Assembly: GCF_003334815.1 (NCBI RefSeq) | Contig: NZ_QOWO01000022.1 | Source: Escherichia coli | GTDB lineage: Bacteria; Pseudomonadota; Gammaproteobacteria; Enterobacterales; Enterobacteriaceae | Length of the DNA: 64,000 bases | Direction: 5' to 3' (one strand) | Shown here: positions 9,210-22,193 of the stretch, piece after piece | Layout: every line of letters starts with the position of its first letter | How positions within the stretch are numbered: the first letter of the stretch is position 1 | Program-made: the position numbers and the translations under genes | Notes under the pieces: generated by a model | What the model saw: the letters and a program-made list of their open reading frames with translations, nothing else | Database searches by the model: none | What the model was told of the DNA's origin: nothing

Positions 9210-9356
9210 GGGGATTCCTCCATCGATAAATAGATAAATTTCGGGATGAGGCTGAGTGGAATTAATGCGAACAATCGCCGGTAATGACCGGGCAGGGATG
9301 AAATAACCAGGGTATTTTCACAGGAACAGCAGAAGGCAGTGAGAGACAGGCACAAA

Positions 9357-9386
9357 AAAACCGACTGGTGAGGTCGGTTTTTTTGC
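9357..9386. terminator. Bidirectional rho-independent terminator-like hairpin
   Basis: aaaaaaaccgac tggtgag gtcggttttttt: 8-bp stem flanked by an A-run and a T-run. Confidence 0.45.
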
Positions 9387-9707
9387 GATTCCGGGGCGGA
9401 GTTGGTGACTCTGACCGAAAGGGAAATCACTCTACATCTAACACCATCATAGTAGGCTGCGCTTCTCTTTTTTGCAATCAGAAAAATGACTATAATCGCT
9501 CCGTTAGCTCTGTCTGGTGATGCTTCTGCCGTGATCTCCAATGGGACGATGAACGCGAGATTTTAAGTCCTGGCTGATCGAACAGGTGGTGCTGTGTTCA
9601 GTGCTCTGGCTGGAGAGAAATCACTTTACATCTAACAATGAAAGAGCTGTTGTGACAGGCAATGTAAGAGTAAACAACAGTGATTTCCTCCATTGACGGA
9701 GAAACGG

Positions 9708-9803
9708 ATGATTAACCTGTTAATCATCGTTCTCAGGGCAGTTGTTGCTGTGGTCAATGCAGTGATAGCTCTTCTGGAACTGATCCGGGAACTTATTGAC
9801 TGA
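9708..9803 (+). CDS. Small hydrophobic peptide (31 aa), candidate type I toxin-like membrane peptide
   Basis: GGAG 9 nt upstream of ATG 9708. Peptide MINLLIIVLRAVVAVVNAVIALLELIRELID forms a single amphipathic/transmembrane helix. Preceded by a long leader carrying two copies of gaaatcacTNtacatctaaca. Confidence 0.3.
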   Translation: MINLLIIVLRAVVAVVNAVIALLELIRELID

Positions 9804-9945
9804 TAATCCCGGAAACGTACTTAAGGGCAGAGGGGCACCGCCTTCTGCCCTTTAATAAACAGGATATTATTACCCCCACAGGACTGCCAGTATCAAAAAT
9901 GCACCTGCAGTAAGCATGGCAAGTTTTTCCCATATCATGGGATTG

Positions 9946-10257
9946 TCATCCCTCTTTTGTTTTCTTTTTCTCATATAAATGATGGTGTTTACTCAGACGG
10001 AAGAGTCTTTCGTCTGTGTCTGTATGTCTGATTATTTTGCTCATTTGATTACGCATCAGAATGCGCTTAGCACAGAAGTTGATTTTAGCGGTTGCCAGGT
10101 TTTTATTAATAGTCAGCGTGGCGGCATGATATGCATGCCGCCACAATATTAACGCCCGGGCATAATCATGATGTACTGTCGACTCTTCCGCGGCTTTTGC
10201 CAGCTGAGACCAGGACATTCGGTGCAGATCAGCTTGTATAAGGTCCGGGGATGTCAT
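9946..10257 (-). CDS. Hypothetical small protein, possibly a PerC/ANR-like regulator
   Basis: 103 aa with GGAG RBS. Segment SWSQLAKAAEESTVHHDYARALILWRHAYHAA resembles the W...A...W pattern of PerC/ANR-type small regulators. Weak, pattern-only. Confidence 0.35.
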   Translation of the reverse strand: MTSPDLIQADLHRMSWSQLAKAAEESTVHHDYARALILWRHAYHAATLTINKNLATAKINFCAKRILMRNQMSKIIRHTDTDERLFRLSKHHHLYEKKKTKEG

Positions 10258-10488
10258 AGCGGACTCCGGTTGCGCATGTCTTGTTTATTCTCCGGCGGGG
10301 ACGCAGACGCCACGGAGAGCAAATTCCCCCACGTTTTCTTTTTTCAGCGCGGTGAAGGCATCCCGACAGGCTTTTTCAGTACGGAACGCCTGACTGTGAA
10401 CAGCCAGTGTGGGTTGCCGGGCATCGCCGGAGGAGACATTAAAGGGGGATGAGAGCCAGAAAATCAGGATCCACATAGAACAGCCTTA

Positions 10489-19437: not shown

Positions 19438-19468
19438 AGGCTGACACTGTTTTCAGCACATCCCTGGA

Positions 19469-19711
19469 TCAGTGAATATGCTGACCTGTTTTTTCGCGAA
19501 TATCAGCCCCCTGTAATTGTATCAATATACCTTCTCCGTTGAGCATCAGGCTGTCCAGTGAATGGATCCCACTCCTCCTCATCAGTTCGTAGCAGAGTGT
19601 ACTCAGCATGGCAAGTGCAGCTTCTGATGATTTACAGTGTGTATTCAGGAGGGTAAAAAATTGTTCAAAAACATCCGGGTTTATACTGGTGCTTTGATAT
19701 TCGTTACTCAT
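19469..19711 (-). CDS. Hypothetical small protein (about 80 aa)
   Basis: ORF starting MSNEYQSTSINPDVFEQFF; internal start chosen over the longer track ORF. No motif. Confidence 0.3.
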   Translation of the reverse strand: MSNEYQSTSINPDVFEQFFTLLNTHCKSSEAALAMLSTLCYELMRRSGIHSLDSLMLNGEGILIQLQGADIREKTGQHIH

Positions 19712-20043
19712 AGTATTTCCTTCCAGGTCATTATTACTTCCGGATTTAACATGATGTCTGTAACCATAAAATAATGAACGTGTTCCGGGAATCCTTGCCG
19801 TGTAGTTTCCCGTAAAAATACTGTTGTGCATAACATGTCATTAGGTGGAAAACGATTGTGGCAGACTGAAAATCGATTAGAATAGCGGCGGGCGCTTGAG
19901 GCTGTATGCTGAAAGCGTTTTGTGGACGGCATGCAGCAGAAAGCCCCAGGCGATTTTTTTATCAATCAACCCAGGGCCCACTGTAATGCCTAGACAACAT
20001 TATAGTAGCCCGATGACGGCCGAAAGGCAATGGAGGGGCTGCG

Positions 20044-20196
20044 ATGCCACAACGAACGTTTTTAACAATGTTAATTGTCGTCTGTGTGACGATACTGTGT
20101 TTTGTCTGGATGCTGAGGGATTCGCTTTGCGGATTCCGTGTCGAGCAGGGAAACACAGTGCTTGTGGCAACGTTAGCCTACGAAGTTAAACGTTAA
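20044..20196 (+). CDS. pndA: Hok/Gef-family type I toxin (PndA-like), 50 aa
   Basis: Translation MPQRTFLTMLIVVCVTILCFVWMLRDSLCGFRVEQGNTVLVATLAYEVKR: single TM helix plus conserved Cys and LAYE. A longer overlapping ORF in another frame (19896-20189) is mok/pndC-like, as expected for hok-type loci. Below the ORF-track size cut-off. Confidence 0.75.
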   Translation: MPQRTFLTMLIVVCVTILCFVWMLRDSLCGFRVEQGNTVLVATLAYEVKR

Positions 20197-20333
20197 CGGG
20201 CAACACGGCGGCAGGAAATCTGCCGCCGGATTGTTGCGAAGGCTGACCTCAATGCGCCTTGTTTGTCTTTTTTACCGGACGACTGCTGGTTGCTGCTGTC
20301 CGGCAGCTATTATTTTTTCCGTCCTGTGCGTCA

Positions 20334-21920
20334 TCAATTATGACAGTCGCTCTCATTTGGTTGTCTCTGGTTAGATGTATTATTAGATATTTTCGGGGTA
20401 ATTCGATAAAAGTTATCCACTTCAGCACCAGACTGAATGATATATGCAATAAGATCTAAACGATGAATCTCGTATCGTGTACGTAACTCCATCATTTCAC
20501 GCCATGCTAAAATCCTTGATGTTTTCAGTTCAGCCTCTATAAGTTTCCATGTGTTTGTTGAGATGGCATGTTCTTCCAGCTGACGTAACGAGAACCTATC
20601 ACTAATGACCAACCATCCCCATCCTCGAGTATGTGCCCATTTGCGACCTGCATTACTTTTTATTCTCGTGAGACTCAAGGTCATTCGGTCTGTTGGCTTC
20701 ACTTCCATAAGTAGGCACCGACCATCAACTGTCGCAATGAGTAAATCTGGATAGTATTTTTTTGATTTGTTTTTAAAACAATATGGAATAGAAAATGGTT
20801 GTTCTTGATAGAAAAGAACCTGATCGCAACATTCTAATAGATTCATTATTTTAAACTCAAGCCCTGATTCGTACTGGACTGTACGACCTAATTTTTGAGA
20901 GTAAAAGAATCCAGATATGTCAGTATCATTAACCGCTCTCTGTGAACATAGCTGTTCTACGGGGGGAGGAGGTGCGATATATTTTGGCCAATGTGTATTG
21001 TCTAGCCATTTACTGAATATGAACTCAACTCTTTCTTTCTTGATTCGGGCTCTTTCCTGAGCGCGAGCGTGTGCTAATTCTGCTCTTCGTTCACGTAACC
21101 TCTGCTTTTGTAATTGTGATATTAATGAGAGCGAATTTTTTATTTCATCTCGTCTTGCTTTAGGAATGCCTGCGGTAAAAATAATGAATTTGGCGGCTAA
21201 CTCAGAGGATGTAACGAAATCCCGATGAACAATACGATAAATCCATACTGCTATATCATATGGTGAATTACCTATTGAGTTAATAAGGGCTTTAAGGCAA
21301 GCTCCTGGTGTCCCTTCATAGCGAGATTTAGCAGCTAGTAAGCCAAGGGCTCGTTCCTGAAGTTGTCTTACCCTTTCACGGGAAATTCCTAATTTGACGG
21401 CAATATCTGCCAGAGAATGAGGTGAATCATCTGTGCCGAGTCGCATTAGAAGAATATATTGATGTCGTTTATTAGATAAACTTTCGATAGCGGAATGAAT
21501 TAGCATAATGACATCATGTTCATCGGCTATATAATCTTTAAAATCTGTATTGGGTTGGCAGAGGGGGAGTGGGGTATTTTGTTTAAAACTATTCTTTTGT
21601 ATTTCAACTTTATCATGAGCAATTGTTTTTGCAGTGCTCAATGATATTAAATTATTGATGATACTATTGTGTTCTTGGCGAGGAATCTTGTTGAAGTAAT
21701 TGCTGAGATCATTCACAGTGTTTATATCGTTGAACTCAAGAAACTCAGAAGGAAGCAGGCGTTTGATTGCTCCACGTATTCCCCCGGACGATCGTTGATG
21801 TGTTTGAGTAAGTTTTTTTAGCGAGACGCCCTCCGCTATGGATACGAGAAGACGCTGTAACTCTTCAGTATTCCATGGAGTACCATGTCGTGCTGGAAAA
21901 TTGCTGCGGGATTCAGACAT
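20334..21920 (-). CDS. Uncharacterised fusion protein: sigma-70 region-4-like HTH domains plus C-terminal PD-(D/E)xK (TnsA-like) nuclease fold
   Basis: 528 aa, AT-rich. Clear HTH in HQYILLMRLGTDDSPHSLADIAVKLGISRERVRQLQERALGLL, with a second HTH-like segment near the N-terminus. C-terminal YESGLEFKIMNLLE ... YYPDLLIATVDGRCLLMEVKP matches the E...D...E-x-K restriction-endonuclease-like motif. Confidence 0.6.
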   Translation of the reverse strand: MSESRSNFPARHGTPWNTEELQRLLVSIAEGVSLKKLTQTHQRSSGGIRGAIKRLLPSEFLEFNDINTVNDLSNYFNKIPRQEHNSIINNLISLSTAKTIAHDKVEIQKNSFKQNTPLPLCQPNTDFKDYIADEHDVIMLIHSAIESLSNKRHQYILLMRLGTDDSPHSLADIAVKLGISRERVRQLQERALGLLAAKSRYEGTPGACLKALINSIGNSPYDIAVWIYRIVHRDFVTSSELAAKFIIFTAGIPKARRDEIKNSLSLISQLQKQRLRERRAELAHARAQERARIKKERVEFIFSKWLDNTHWPKYIAPPPPVEQLCSQRAVNDTDISGFFYSQKLGRTVQYESGLEFKIMNLLECCDQVLFYQEQPFSIPYCFKNKSKKYYPDLLIATVDGRCLLMEVKPTDRMTLSLTRIKSNAGRKWAHTRGWGWLVISDRFSLRQLEEHAISTNTWKLIEAELKTSRILAWREMMELRTRYEIHRLDLIAYIIQSGAEVDNFYRITPKISNNTSNQRQPNESDCHN

Positions 21921-22193
21921 GATTTTATCTTTATGTTTTCTAGGTACTGCCTTGAGTGTGTGGATATGATAATTATTTATAATGATATTGTTATCTTTTA
22001 TAGATAACTGATATGCAGAATTGTATTGATTTTGTCTACAGTGGGCAAGACAGTGCTAAGAATTTGTGGGGAAAAAATAGAGACTCCATGCGGCGTCCTG
22101 AGATAGACGGCAGACAGGCATTCTGCCTGAAAAGAAAAAGCCGGTTCAGAGAAAACCGGCTGACGGATTACCGTCTAACAGTTGGTCGCTACC

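Follow-up and report, generated by a model that had tools for sequence, protein, structure and literature searches.

[quoted passage not shown] The epeA region of pO113 was described by Leyton et al. (2003, as cited in PMC3817090 and PMC3377399), and pnd of R64, the prototype IncI1 plasmid, by Furuya & Komano (1996, as cited in PMC10286972). Here, we compare these systems with the corresponding interval (9210-22193) of a 64,000-nt stretch of an Escherichia coli contig (NZ_QOWO01000022.1), hereafter the window.

A check of gene content at these coordinates confirmed that the interval is bounded by trbA (7920-9209, minus strand) on the left and excA (22194-22847, minus strand) on the right, in an MPF_I/MOBP plasmid of the I-complex, with 5 mismatches to the IncK2/Z plasmid pH2332-107 in the first 49,700 bases of the window. 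It extends from the terminator of the tra operon (22139-22161, minus strand) to the start of trbA. With a probability of about 85%, we read it as a variable spacer between the trbABC and tra/excA operons of an I-complex (IncK2/Z, pO113/pO26-CRL-type) conjugative plasmid and not as a discrete mobile island, an explanation for which Venturini et al. is the cited support. The 13-kb spacer is largely ordinary and, as the region has already been published, known. Its importance is chiefly one of annotation, in that the "island" of pO113 and IncK2/Z plasmids would be a spacer built by recombination.

Position, gene order and the serine-protease autotransporter (SPATE) are the same as in the pO26-CRL-type plasmids (PMC3817090). 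NC_022996 and NC_022992 are 99.6% identical to the interval over 86% of its length but lack a 1.84-kb block carrying pCT_066, in whose place they have a 164-bp filler, as does a further relative (L007). The pO113-type plasmids share the trbA-excA slot, the small genes and the genes for the ECs1377-family protein, DUF2569 protein, phosphoethanolamine (PEtN) transferase homolog, pnd and pCT_066 at 94-96.5% identity. They differ in that nuc is unannotated there and that the SPATE passenger is EpeA, the proteins being 60.5% identical overall and 28-60% within the passenger. R64 (NC_005014) has the same flanking genes, and both pnd/Hok and dqlB lie in its spacer (Hok, hypothetical, dqlB, hypothetical, HEAT); however, that spacer is only 2,274 bp long, the order of the two toxin-antitoxin loci is reversed, a HEAT-repeat ORF adjoins excA, and nuc, the ECs1377-family gene, the SPATE, the PEtN gene and the pCT_066 gene are missing. 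In the IncK1 plasmid p15648-2 the spacer measures ~6.3 kb. The whole arrangement is at least 99% identical in 37 PLSDB plasmids, and at least 80% of the interval is carried by 45 of 5,426 complete E. coli genomes.

When compared with R64 and IncK1 plasmids, ~4.6 kb of the interval proves to be lineage backbone. On blastn against two IncK1 plasmids (L002 and L003), backbone and cargo are interleaved: 9346-9859, 15853-17096 and 19471 onward match, and 9860-10285, 11054-15852 and 17097-19470 do not. The first-pass annotation had treated the 13 kb as one accessory unit, which is contradicted by the finding that the dqlB/AgrB, nuc, ECs1377 and 80-aa-ORF/pnd segments are common to cargo-free I-complex plasmids at 72-97% identity. 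The suggested comparison with related plasmids did define the junctions, which follow the dqlB terminator directly or coincide with the stop codons of the ECs1377-family gene and the 80-aa ORF.

The first backbone segment (9210-9859) comprises the trbA upstream region, an AgrB-like antisense RNA (9352-9441, minus strand; Rfam RF02891, 49.3 bits), dqlB, a DinQ-like type I toxin gene (9708-9803, plus strand) annotated as a CDS in the near-identical pH2332-107, and a terminator hairpin (9825-9850). The pairing of small toxin ORF and antisense RNA is that of dinQ/agrB-type loci. This segment is 76-90% identical to L002, where homology stops directly after the dqlB hairpin, and 80% identical to an R64-type plasmid. 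The second (15853-17096; 79.5% identical to the cargo-free L002 and L003) holds nuc (15813-16316, minus strand), which encodes a thermonuclease-family protein with SNase-type profile matches and a Sec-type N-terminus/signal peptide, and the gene of an ECs1377-family DNA-binding protein (16475-17098, plus strand; NCBIfam ECs1377_fam, 293.6 bits against a cut-off of 190). The third (19471-20264) consists of an 80-aa ORF (19469-19711, minus strand) and the hok/sok-type pnd locus, in which a Hok/Gef CDS (20044-20196, plus strand) overlaps a sok-like RNA (19890-20046; Rfam RF01794, 124.5 bits). The pnd part is 90.8% identical to the R64-type plasmid and 94-97% to L002. At Rfam gathering thresholds, nothing besides sok and AgrB was found. 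Judged by family, the two toxin-antitoxin loci would supply post-segregational killing. The remaining stretch (22106-22193, minus strand), covering the excA downstream region with the terminator-like stem-loop of the tra/excA operon, is conserved throughout the relatives, whether or not they have the pCT_066 block.

Cargo module M1 (9860-15852, minus strand) consists of a 90-aa ANR-like ORF (9946-10218; NCBIfam ANR, 28.6 bits, below the cut-off of 32), ORFs of 63 aa (10285-10476) and 120 aa (10489-10851), a doubtful 69-aa ORF (10985-11194, plus strand), the SPATE gene and an AT-rich region upstream of it (15449-15812). Pfam gave no matches for the ANR-like and 120-aa ORFs. The SPATE gene (11357-15448, minus strand) encodes a 1363-aa S6 serine-protease autotransporter (TIGR01414, E = 1.5e-74). 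Its predicted extended signal peptide, S6 protease domain with GDSGS and C-terminal autotransporter beta-barrel are those of the SPATE family; the N-terminus MNKIYSLKYS... is common to EpeA and EspI, and the translation contains GDSGSP. It is this protein that was described as the "novel SPATE" of pO26-CRL125 (PMC3817090). The protein is a mosaic: residues 1-100 are 93% identical to EpeA, residues 100-600 show 46-60% identity to EspI, about 700-1000 show 98-100% to EspI, and the last ~260 residues are 99-100% identical to EspP and EpeA and 95-100% to EspI, with which overall identity is 78%.

M1 is absent at the corresponding position in L002 and L003. The unit from the ANR-like gene to the SPATE also occurs in chromosomal LPA-like islands, with 95.8% identity in strain 89-3156 and 82% nucleotide identity where the SPATE is espI (RefSeq annotation). 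The chromosomal copies adjoin an AraC-family regulator gene upstream of the SPATE as well as IS66 and IS3 remnants; the plasmid copy lacks the regulator gene, with nuc in the upstream position, and is free of IS remnants. Because these chromosomal copies abut IS remnants, an IS-mediated step before M1 reached the plasmid is possible. Counterparts of the small genes at 10286-11053 exist in L002 with 72% identity, but they sit at another place in the IncK1 spacer; instead of M1 import, the spacer may therefore possibly have undergone internal rearrangement or duplication.

The same slot holds other SPATEs in related plasmids. In pO113-type plasmids it is occupied by EpeA, with flanks 94-96.5% identical and the passenger only 65-73%. 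In an IncF plasmid it is occupied by EspP, and since that plasmid also has the dqlB terminator and the nuc and ECs1377-family genes, this shows export from an I-complex plasmid. The passenger described here is found in ~48 PLSDB plasmids. We suggest that SPATE alleles (EpeA, EspP and the EspI-like mosaic) may be exchanged in the spacer through the conserved signal-peptide and beta-barrel ends of the gene, without a transposon, which bears on the tracking of virulence genes on resistance plasmids of Shiga toxin-producing and ESBL E. coli.

Cargo module M2 (17097-19470, plus strand) contains genes for a DUF2569 membrane protein (17186-17641, plus strand) and a PEtN-transferase-family protein (17841-19376, plus strand), followed by its own terminator (19399-19426), and is present in 125 PLSDB plasmids, nearly all from E. 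coli. Among NCBIfam models, the PEtN protein scores best with CptA (108 bits against a cut-off of 404), followed by 75.8 bits with EptA (cut-off 561) and at most 29 bits with the MCR models (cut-offs of at least 1100). Assignment to the MCR/EptA lipid A phosphoethanolamine transferases was rejected on these scores, all below the curated cut-offs; by sequence, the plasmid-borne homolog is a member of the superfamily only and not MCR-like. Taken by family, the cargo would supply a secreted protease and an envelope-modifying enzyme.

GC content varies along the interval from 32 to 51%, bearing out the reported mosaic composition, and differs from the ~55% of the trb/tra regions as in a genomic island. 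By part, it is 54.7% in trb, 50.6% in the small genes, 50.0% in the SPATE barrel, 42.3% in its passenger, 32.4% in the region upstream of it, 49.3% in nuc and the neighboring DNA-binding protein gene, 39.3% in the DUF2569-PEtN pair, 39.3% in the block of the 528-aa ORF (pCT_066) and 55.3% in traY-W.

The first-pass annotation had listed virulence-type cargo, envelope modification, two type I toxin loci and orphan genes, with no IS element, inverted-repeat ends, transposase or integrase; all of the former were found where it placed them, and none of the latter appeared in our searches. Terminal inverted and direct repeats in 9000-22900 were at chance level. A search for short direct repeats at the composition breaks had been suggested; across every module boundary, repeats were no longer than in random 60-mer pairs. 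Scans of the interval for tRNA genes and tandem repeats found none, and blastn and tblastx with IS66, IS100, IS30, IS3 and integrase fragments from related loci gave no matches to it. Megablast against the 5,426 complete E. coli genomes yielded a median of 1 place per genome, located, among the matches listed, on SPATE, hok or dqlB sequence. No integrase or recombinase is annotated in or at the edge of 9210-22193, and the closest gene for a site-specific recombinase is the shufflon's rci (48467-49636). An integrase-mediated island was rejected on the lack of an integrase and a tRNA target and on boundary repeats at chance level, and an IS-bounded or composite transposon on the lack of matches to IS66, IS100, IS30 or IS3 and of terminal repeats and on single-copy matches in E. 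coli genomes. Loss of mobilizing elements, also proposed, has left no trace on the plasmid, IS remnants adjoining the SPATE module only in its chromosomal copies. Thus, what had been observed is confirmed, and its interpretation is partly supported.

In one rival scenario, all 13 kb arrived between trbA and excA in one step, as a genomic or pathogenicity island whose integrase or IS ends then disappeared. This would fit the atypical, mosaic GC, the clustering of virulence-type cargo and the transfer of the whole block into two IncF plasmids. However, in IncF plasmids the block brings trbB/trbA fragments with it and so moved as a piece of I-complex backbone, the ~4.6 kb homologous to cargo-free plasmids is interleaved with the cargo, the modules differ in plasmid distribution, and att sites, direct repeats and inverted repeats are absent from the interval; we regard such an insertion as highly improbable. 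The opposite extreme, in which all of the block belongs to the ancestral I-complex backbone and R64 and IncK1 plasmids got their shorter spacers by deletion, draws on the wide occurrence of nuc, the ECs1377-family gene, dqlB and pnd in the lineage and on the stability of the arrangement in the 37 plasmids. It is very unlikely given the 39-42% GC of the SPATE passenger and DUF2569-PEtN genes against ~55% in trb/tra, the filling of the L002 and L003 slots by other genes instead of gaps, the independent occurrence of the SPATE module in chromosomes and the presence of three different SPATEs in one slot.

The pCT_066 gene could likewise mark a Tn7-like or TnsA-dependent transposon that brought all or part of the region, as it encodes a TnsA-type endonuclease. 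Yet no TnsB/TnsC-like genes are annotated in window positions 1-50,000 or beside five homologs in other genomes, and the polymorphic unit is only 1.84 kb, has no terminal repeats and replaces filler instead of inserting cleanly, making this delivery extremely improbable.

We favor assembly of a variable spacer. The trbA upstream region with dqlB/AgrB, nuc with the ECs1377-family gene, the 80-aa ORF with pnd, and the excA terminator would be inherited within the IncB/O/K/Z lineage. The SPATE module (ANR-like gene, small genes and SPATE) would have taken the place of a 177-nt ORF, the DUF2569-PEtN pair that of three small ORFs, which occupy its slot in L002, and the pCT_066 gene that of the 164-bp filler with its 53-codon ORF, in an order of events that we infer from a handful of representative plasmids. 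These replacements may have come about when co-resident plasmids and islands recombined, homologously or illegitimately, with gene ends and terminator hairpins as crossover points, and the site probably owes its permissiveness to its position, flanked by a terminator on one side and by the start of the trbABC operon on the other. Variation in spacer length, the separate distributions of the parts and the secondary IS insertions that relatives tolerate within the spacer together fit stepwise assembly at a permissive site, as had been proposed.

The sole potentially new lead of the region is the pCT_066 block (20265-22105, minus strand), whose solitary gene (20334-21920), missed on first reading, encodes a 528-aa protein that combines a sigma-70 region 4 HTH with a TnsA-fold PD-(D/E)xK nuclease domain. 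The earlier statement that no recombinase is present thus holds for integrases and transposases but overlooks this nuclease, which is itself no transposase. Searching PDB sequences with the family profile returned sigma region 4 only; the relationship to TnsA surfaced in a fold search. The nuclease domain shares the fold and the catalytic E...D...E-x-K constellation of Tn7 TnsA, but the protein has extra N-terminal HTH and sigma-70 region 4 domains, and its gene has no TnsB/C/D partners and does not lie within a transposon. PADLOC on nine proteins gave weak or irrelevant matches only (SspB for the 528-aa protein, E = 5e-4; an SNase domain for nuc).

The block is present in 325 PLSDB plasmids. 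Clean insertion into the 164-bp filler was considered and rejected, as just 13 nt of similarity at the left edge point to replacement. As to sharp edges common to the plasmids, such as a site-specific mechanism would leave, only about three flank haplotypes occur per side, one reaching 20398. Divergence of the block is 0.3-1.2% among plasmids whose flanks differ by 2-18%, which points to a recent spread. We tentatively propose, as a possibility below even odds, that it is a self-promoting or strongly selected single-gene element that entered recently and spread over IncK1, IncK2/Z, IncB/O and pO113-type backbones by conversion of "empty" alleles, perhaps as a homing-endonuclease-like gene or a stand-alone defense or plasmid-competition nuclease. 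If true, a homing or defense role would account for a "putative sigma factor" that has long lacked an explanation in epidemic IncK plasmids. A published knock-out of pCT_066 in pCT had no phenotype in stability, conjugation, growth and biofilm assays, and a homing or defense role lies outside the reach of these assays. Homologs of the gene adjoin Gabija-like, McrBC, BREX and SIR2 clusters.

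The window comes from a conjugative plasmid of the I-complex. After rounding, positions 9210-22193 show 100% identity with eight or more PLSDB plasmids, including pH2332-107 (NC_025138; IncK2/Z, MOBP, MPF_I), from which the window differs at 5 positions across its first 49,700 bases. The pH2332-107 annotation, carried one-to-one to window coordinates, places nikA/nikB-type relaxase genes first, followed by trbC-trbB-trbA (4521-9209, minus strand), the trbA-excA spacer, excA (22194-22847, minus strand), traY to traE, and rci (48467-49636). From 49712 on, just downstream of rci, the window diverges from pH2332-107, consistent with a different shufflon arrangement.

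The first-pass annotation had described the spacer as a 13-kb accessory island with a mosaic GC composition, and all of the genes it listed are present. These are a 1363-aa SPATE with an extended signal peptide, GDSGSP and an autotransporter barrel (11357-15448, minus strand), a staphylococcal-nuclease-type nuclease with a Sec-type N-terminus (15813-16316, minus strand), two type I toxin loci, and the envelope modification genes, one for a DUF2569 membrane protein and one for a phosphoethanolamine transferase of the sulfatase superfamily. The toxin loci are backed by annotated toxin ORFs and by Rfam matches: an AgrB-like antisense RNA (9352-9441; 49.3 bits against a gathering score of 40) adjoins dqlB (9708-9803), and a sok-like RNA (19890-20046; 124.5 bits against 59) adjoins a Hok-family ORF (20044-20196). 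Inside the AgrB/dqlB locus, a 24-nt direct repeat of 92% identity (9420-9443 and 9614-9637) may reflect duplication of a dinQ/agrAB-type promoter element or antisense-RNA target. The plasmid-borne phosphoethanolamine-transferase homologue (17841-19376, plus strand; 39% GC), which is paired with the DUF2569 protein, falls far short of all curated family cut-offs (CptA, 108 bits against 404; EptA, 76 against 561) and reaches at most 29 bits with the MCR models, whose cut-offs are at least 1100. GC content within the spacer ranges from 32.4% upstream of the SPATE gene to 50.6% in the small genes, compared to approximately 55% in trb and tra.

A single 13-kb island does not describe the spacer, however. 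We compared the window with R64, an R64-type plasmid, the IncK1 plasmid p15648-2 and an IncK2/Z plasmid. The spacer of R64, the prototype IncI1 plasmid, is 2,274 bp long and holds Hok/pnd, a small ORF, dqlB, a 177-nt ORF and a HEAT-repeat ORF, a layout shared by the R64-type plasmid. That of p15648-2 is approximately 6.3 kb and reads dqlB, the 177-nt ORF, nuc, an ECs1377-family gene, three small ORFs, a 243-nt ORF, Hok, a gene for a 528-aa protein and excA; the IncK2/Z plasmid is laid out similarly but without the 528-aa gene. By blastn, segments 9346-9859 (76%), 15853-17096 (79.5%) and 19471 onward (93%) match the two IncK plasmids, whereas 9860-10285, 11054-15852 and 17097-19470 do not. The small genes at 10286-11053 match three p15648-2 ORFs at 72%, and the p15648-2 copies lie on the other side of nuc and the ECs1377 gene. 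Approximately 4.6 kb of the presumed island is therefore lineage backbone, interleaved with two cargo modules. One module (9860-15852) comprises an ANR-like ORF, two or three small ORFs, and the SPATE gene with its AT-rich upstream region; the other (17097-19470), found in 125 PLSDB plasmids, comprises the DUF2569 and phosphoethanolamine transferase genes with their own terminator. Counted from trbA, the two type I toxin loci come in opposite orders in R64-type (trbA-pnd-dqlB-excA; R64 7001-8311) and IncK/B/O/Z-type plasmids (trbA-dqlB-...-pnd-excA; window 9708-20196).

Comparison with related plasmids, which the first-pass annotation had proposed as a way to define the junctions, placed junctions directly after the dqlB terminator hairpin (9825-9850) and where the ECs1377 gene and an 80-aa ORF have their stop codons. 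The junctions are gene-end replacements rather than insertions with duplications. A search for short direct repeats had also been proposed: with every module boundary compared, no repeat was longer than in random 60-mer pairs. The interval and its surroundings likewise showed no terminal repeats, either inverted or direct; it contains neither tRNA genes nor tandem repeats, and blastn and tblastx gave no similarity to the IS66, IS100, IS30, IS3 and integrase fragments of related loci. The median number of places matched by the interval is 1 per genome across 5,426 complete E. coli genomes, and the matches listed are to SPATE, hok or dqlB sequence. DNA derived from an IS would not show such matching. 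The reported absence of IS elements, inverted-repeat ends and integrases thus held up in all of these checks.

Two histories had been offered for the spacer: stepwise acquisition at a permissive site, or loss of the mobilizing elements. The plasmid carries no evidence for the latter. Stepwise acquisition at such a site is supported. In relatives, ISVsa5, ISCro1, IS1203 and ISKpn26 have inserted secondarily inside the block, indicating that the site tolerates insertions. Both flanking operons run on the minus strand, and the interval extends from the trbA start codon to just past a strong terminator-like hairpin (22139-22161) downstream of excA, so that added DNA interrupts no operon. We infer that the site is permissive owing to its position between operons. 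The block also reaches IncF plasmids within larger I-complex fragments. In the IncFIA/FII plasmid pRHB14-C23_3 (2221-15527), one such fragment, running from trbB and trbA through the entire spacer as far as the 80-aa ORF, is embedded between copies of IS66 and IS100, so the block can be carried along within a larger piece of backbone.

The interval is an already-described, widespread plasmid region, and the finding is known in substance. Plasmids pO26-CRL125 and pO111-CRL115, sequenced by Venturini et al. 2013 (PMC3817090), match it at 99.6% apart from the 528-aa gene, and those authors took the divergent G+C to indicate multiple transfer events. Our addition is the segment-by-segment decomposition of the spacer.

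Judged by its closest relatives, the window's SPATE is a recombinant mosaic at the protein level. Residues 1-100, with an EpeA-like signal peptide, are closest to EpeA (93%); residues 100-600, a novel protease domain, are closest to EspI at only 46-60%; the middle passenger (residues ~700-1000) is 98-100% identical to EspI; and the barrel, the last ~260 residues, is 99-100% identical to EspP and EpeA and 95-100% to EspI. EpeA and EspP hold the same slot in other plasmids. In a pO113-type plasmid the spacer is 94-96.5% identical except for the passenger-coding part (window 12574-15078; 65-73%), where the passenger is EpeA. Approximately 48 PLSDB plasmids carry at least 80% of the window's passenger segment, and many others have the same SPATE upstream region but EpeA. 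Different passengers share one slot because the conserved SPATE gene ends evidently act as recombination handles.

An IncFIA/FIB STEC plasmid carries espP between the same small genes and a nuc remnant plus the ECs1377 gene. As its homology begins within the last codons of dqlB and takes in the dqlB terminator, this block was exported from an I-complex plasmid. The unit of ANR-like, 63-aa, 120-aa and SPATE genes also occurs in two chromosomes, at 95.8% identity in strain 89-3156 and at 82% at an espI locus adjoining iha and btuB. Both chromosomal copies have an AraC-family regulator upstream of the SPATE gene, and remnants of IS66 or IS3 directly border the ANR-like gene. Unlike these copies (L011 15297-16034, L012 13366-14103), the plasmid module carries its ANR-like gene without an AraC gene. 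The ANR-like gene is a 90-aa ORF (9946-10218, minus strand) downstream of the SPATE gene; its resemblance to the ANR (AraC negative regulator) family reaches 28.6 bits, below the cut-off of 32.

The interest of the interval is low apart from one lead, the solitary 528-aa gene (20334-21920, minus strand; block 20265-22105). The claim that the interval holds no recombinase stands as regards IS and integrase similarity; it overlooked a TnsA-like endonuclease domain in this ORF. The gene is known from the epidemic IncK plasmid pCT as pCT_066, a "putative sigma factor", and a published pCT_066 primer and recombineering arm match the window exactly (20570-20589 and 21795-21834). Its inactivation left stability, conjugation, growth, biofilm formation and competitive index unchanged (PMC4083329). 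The protein combines a sigma-70 region 4 HTH (residues 150-193) with a PD-(D/E)xK domain of the TnsA fold (residues 330-440). E351, D392, E406, K408 and residues of the HTH recognition helix are invariant among 22 aligned homologues, which come from Enterobacterales, Xanthomonas, Stenotrophomonas, Streptomyces and others.

The pCT_066 block is at least 99% identical in 302 of 325 plasmids, and within I-complex plasmids the closest homologue beyond the 90% cluster shows just 59% identity. Between the window and p15648-2, positions 20218-22170 contain 8 differing sites (0.4%), while the neighboring 370 bp and 300 bp differ by approximately 5% and the trb/tra backbone by 7-10%. Among ten I-complex plasmids, block divergence is 0.3-1.2% against 2-18% in the flanks, with three haplotypes on the left and at least five alleles, 9-18% apart, on the excA/traY side; the boundary comparison across the ten covers only about three flank haplotypes per side. 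Close relatives of the window, among them one that is 99.8% identical on the left, have a 164-bp filler with a 53-codon ORF in place of the block. Low block divergence, divergent flanks and empty relatives together indicate that pCT_066 entered this plasmid group recently and spread by recombination.

On these sequence patterns, pCT_066 may be a recently spread selfish or defense gene, its spread either self-promoted (homing-like) or selected (through defense or plasmid competition). In five other genomes, homologues are always solitary, in variable or mobile regions, with no TnsB/C-like genes beside them. The Pectobacterium homologue is next to a Gabija-like pair and an McrB-like gene, that of Salmonella is approximately 3 kb from the BREX genes brxA-C, and that of Xanthomonas adjoins an SMC/AAA_15-SIR2 cluster; the Mangrovibacter homologue sits in an integrase island next to smpB, and the Providencia homologue is on a plasmid. 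Just left of the pCT_066 block in two STEC plasmids (L008 14777-16177, L024 1032-2432), there are two copies of the pnd (Hok) locus, separated by an inserted VapBC type II toxin-antitoxin pair.
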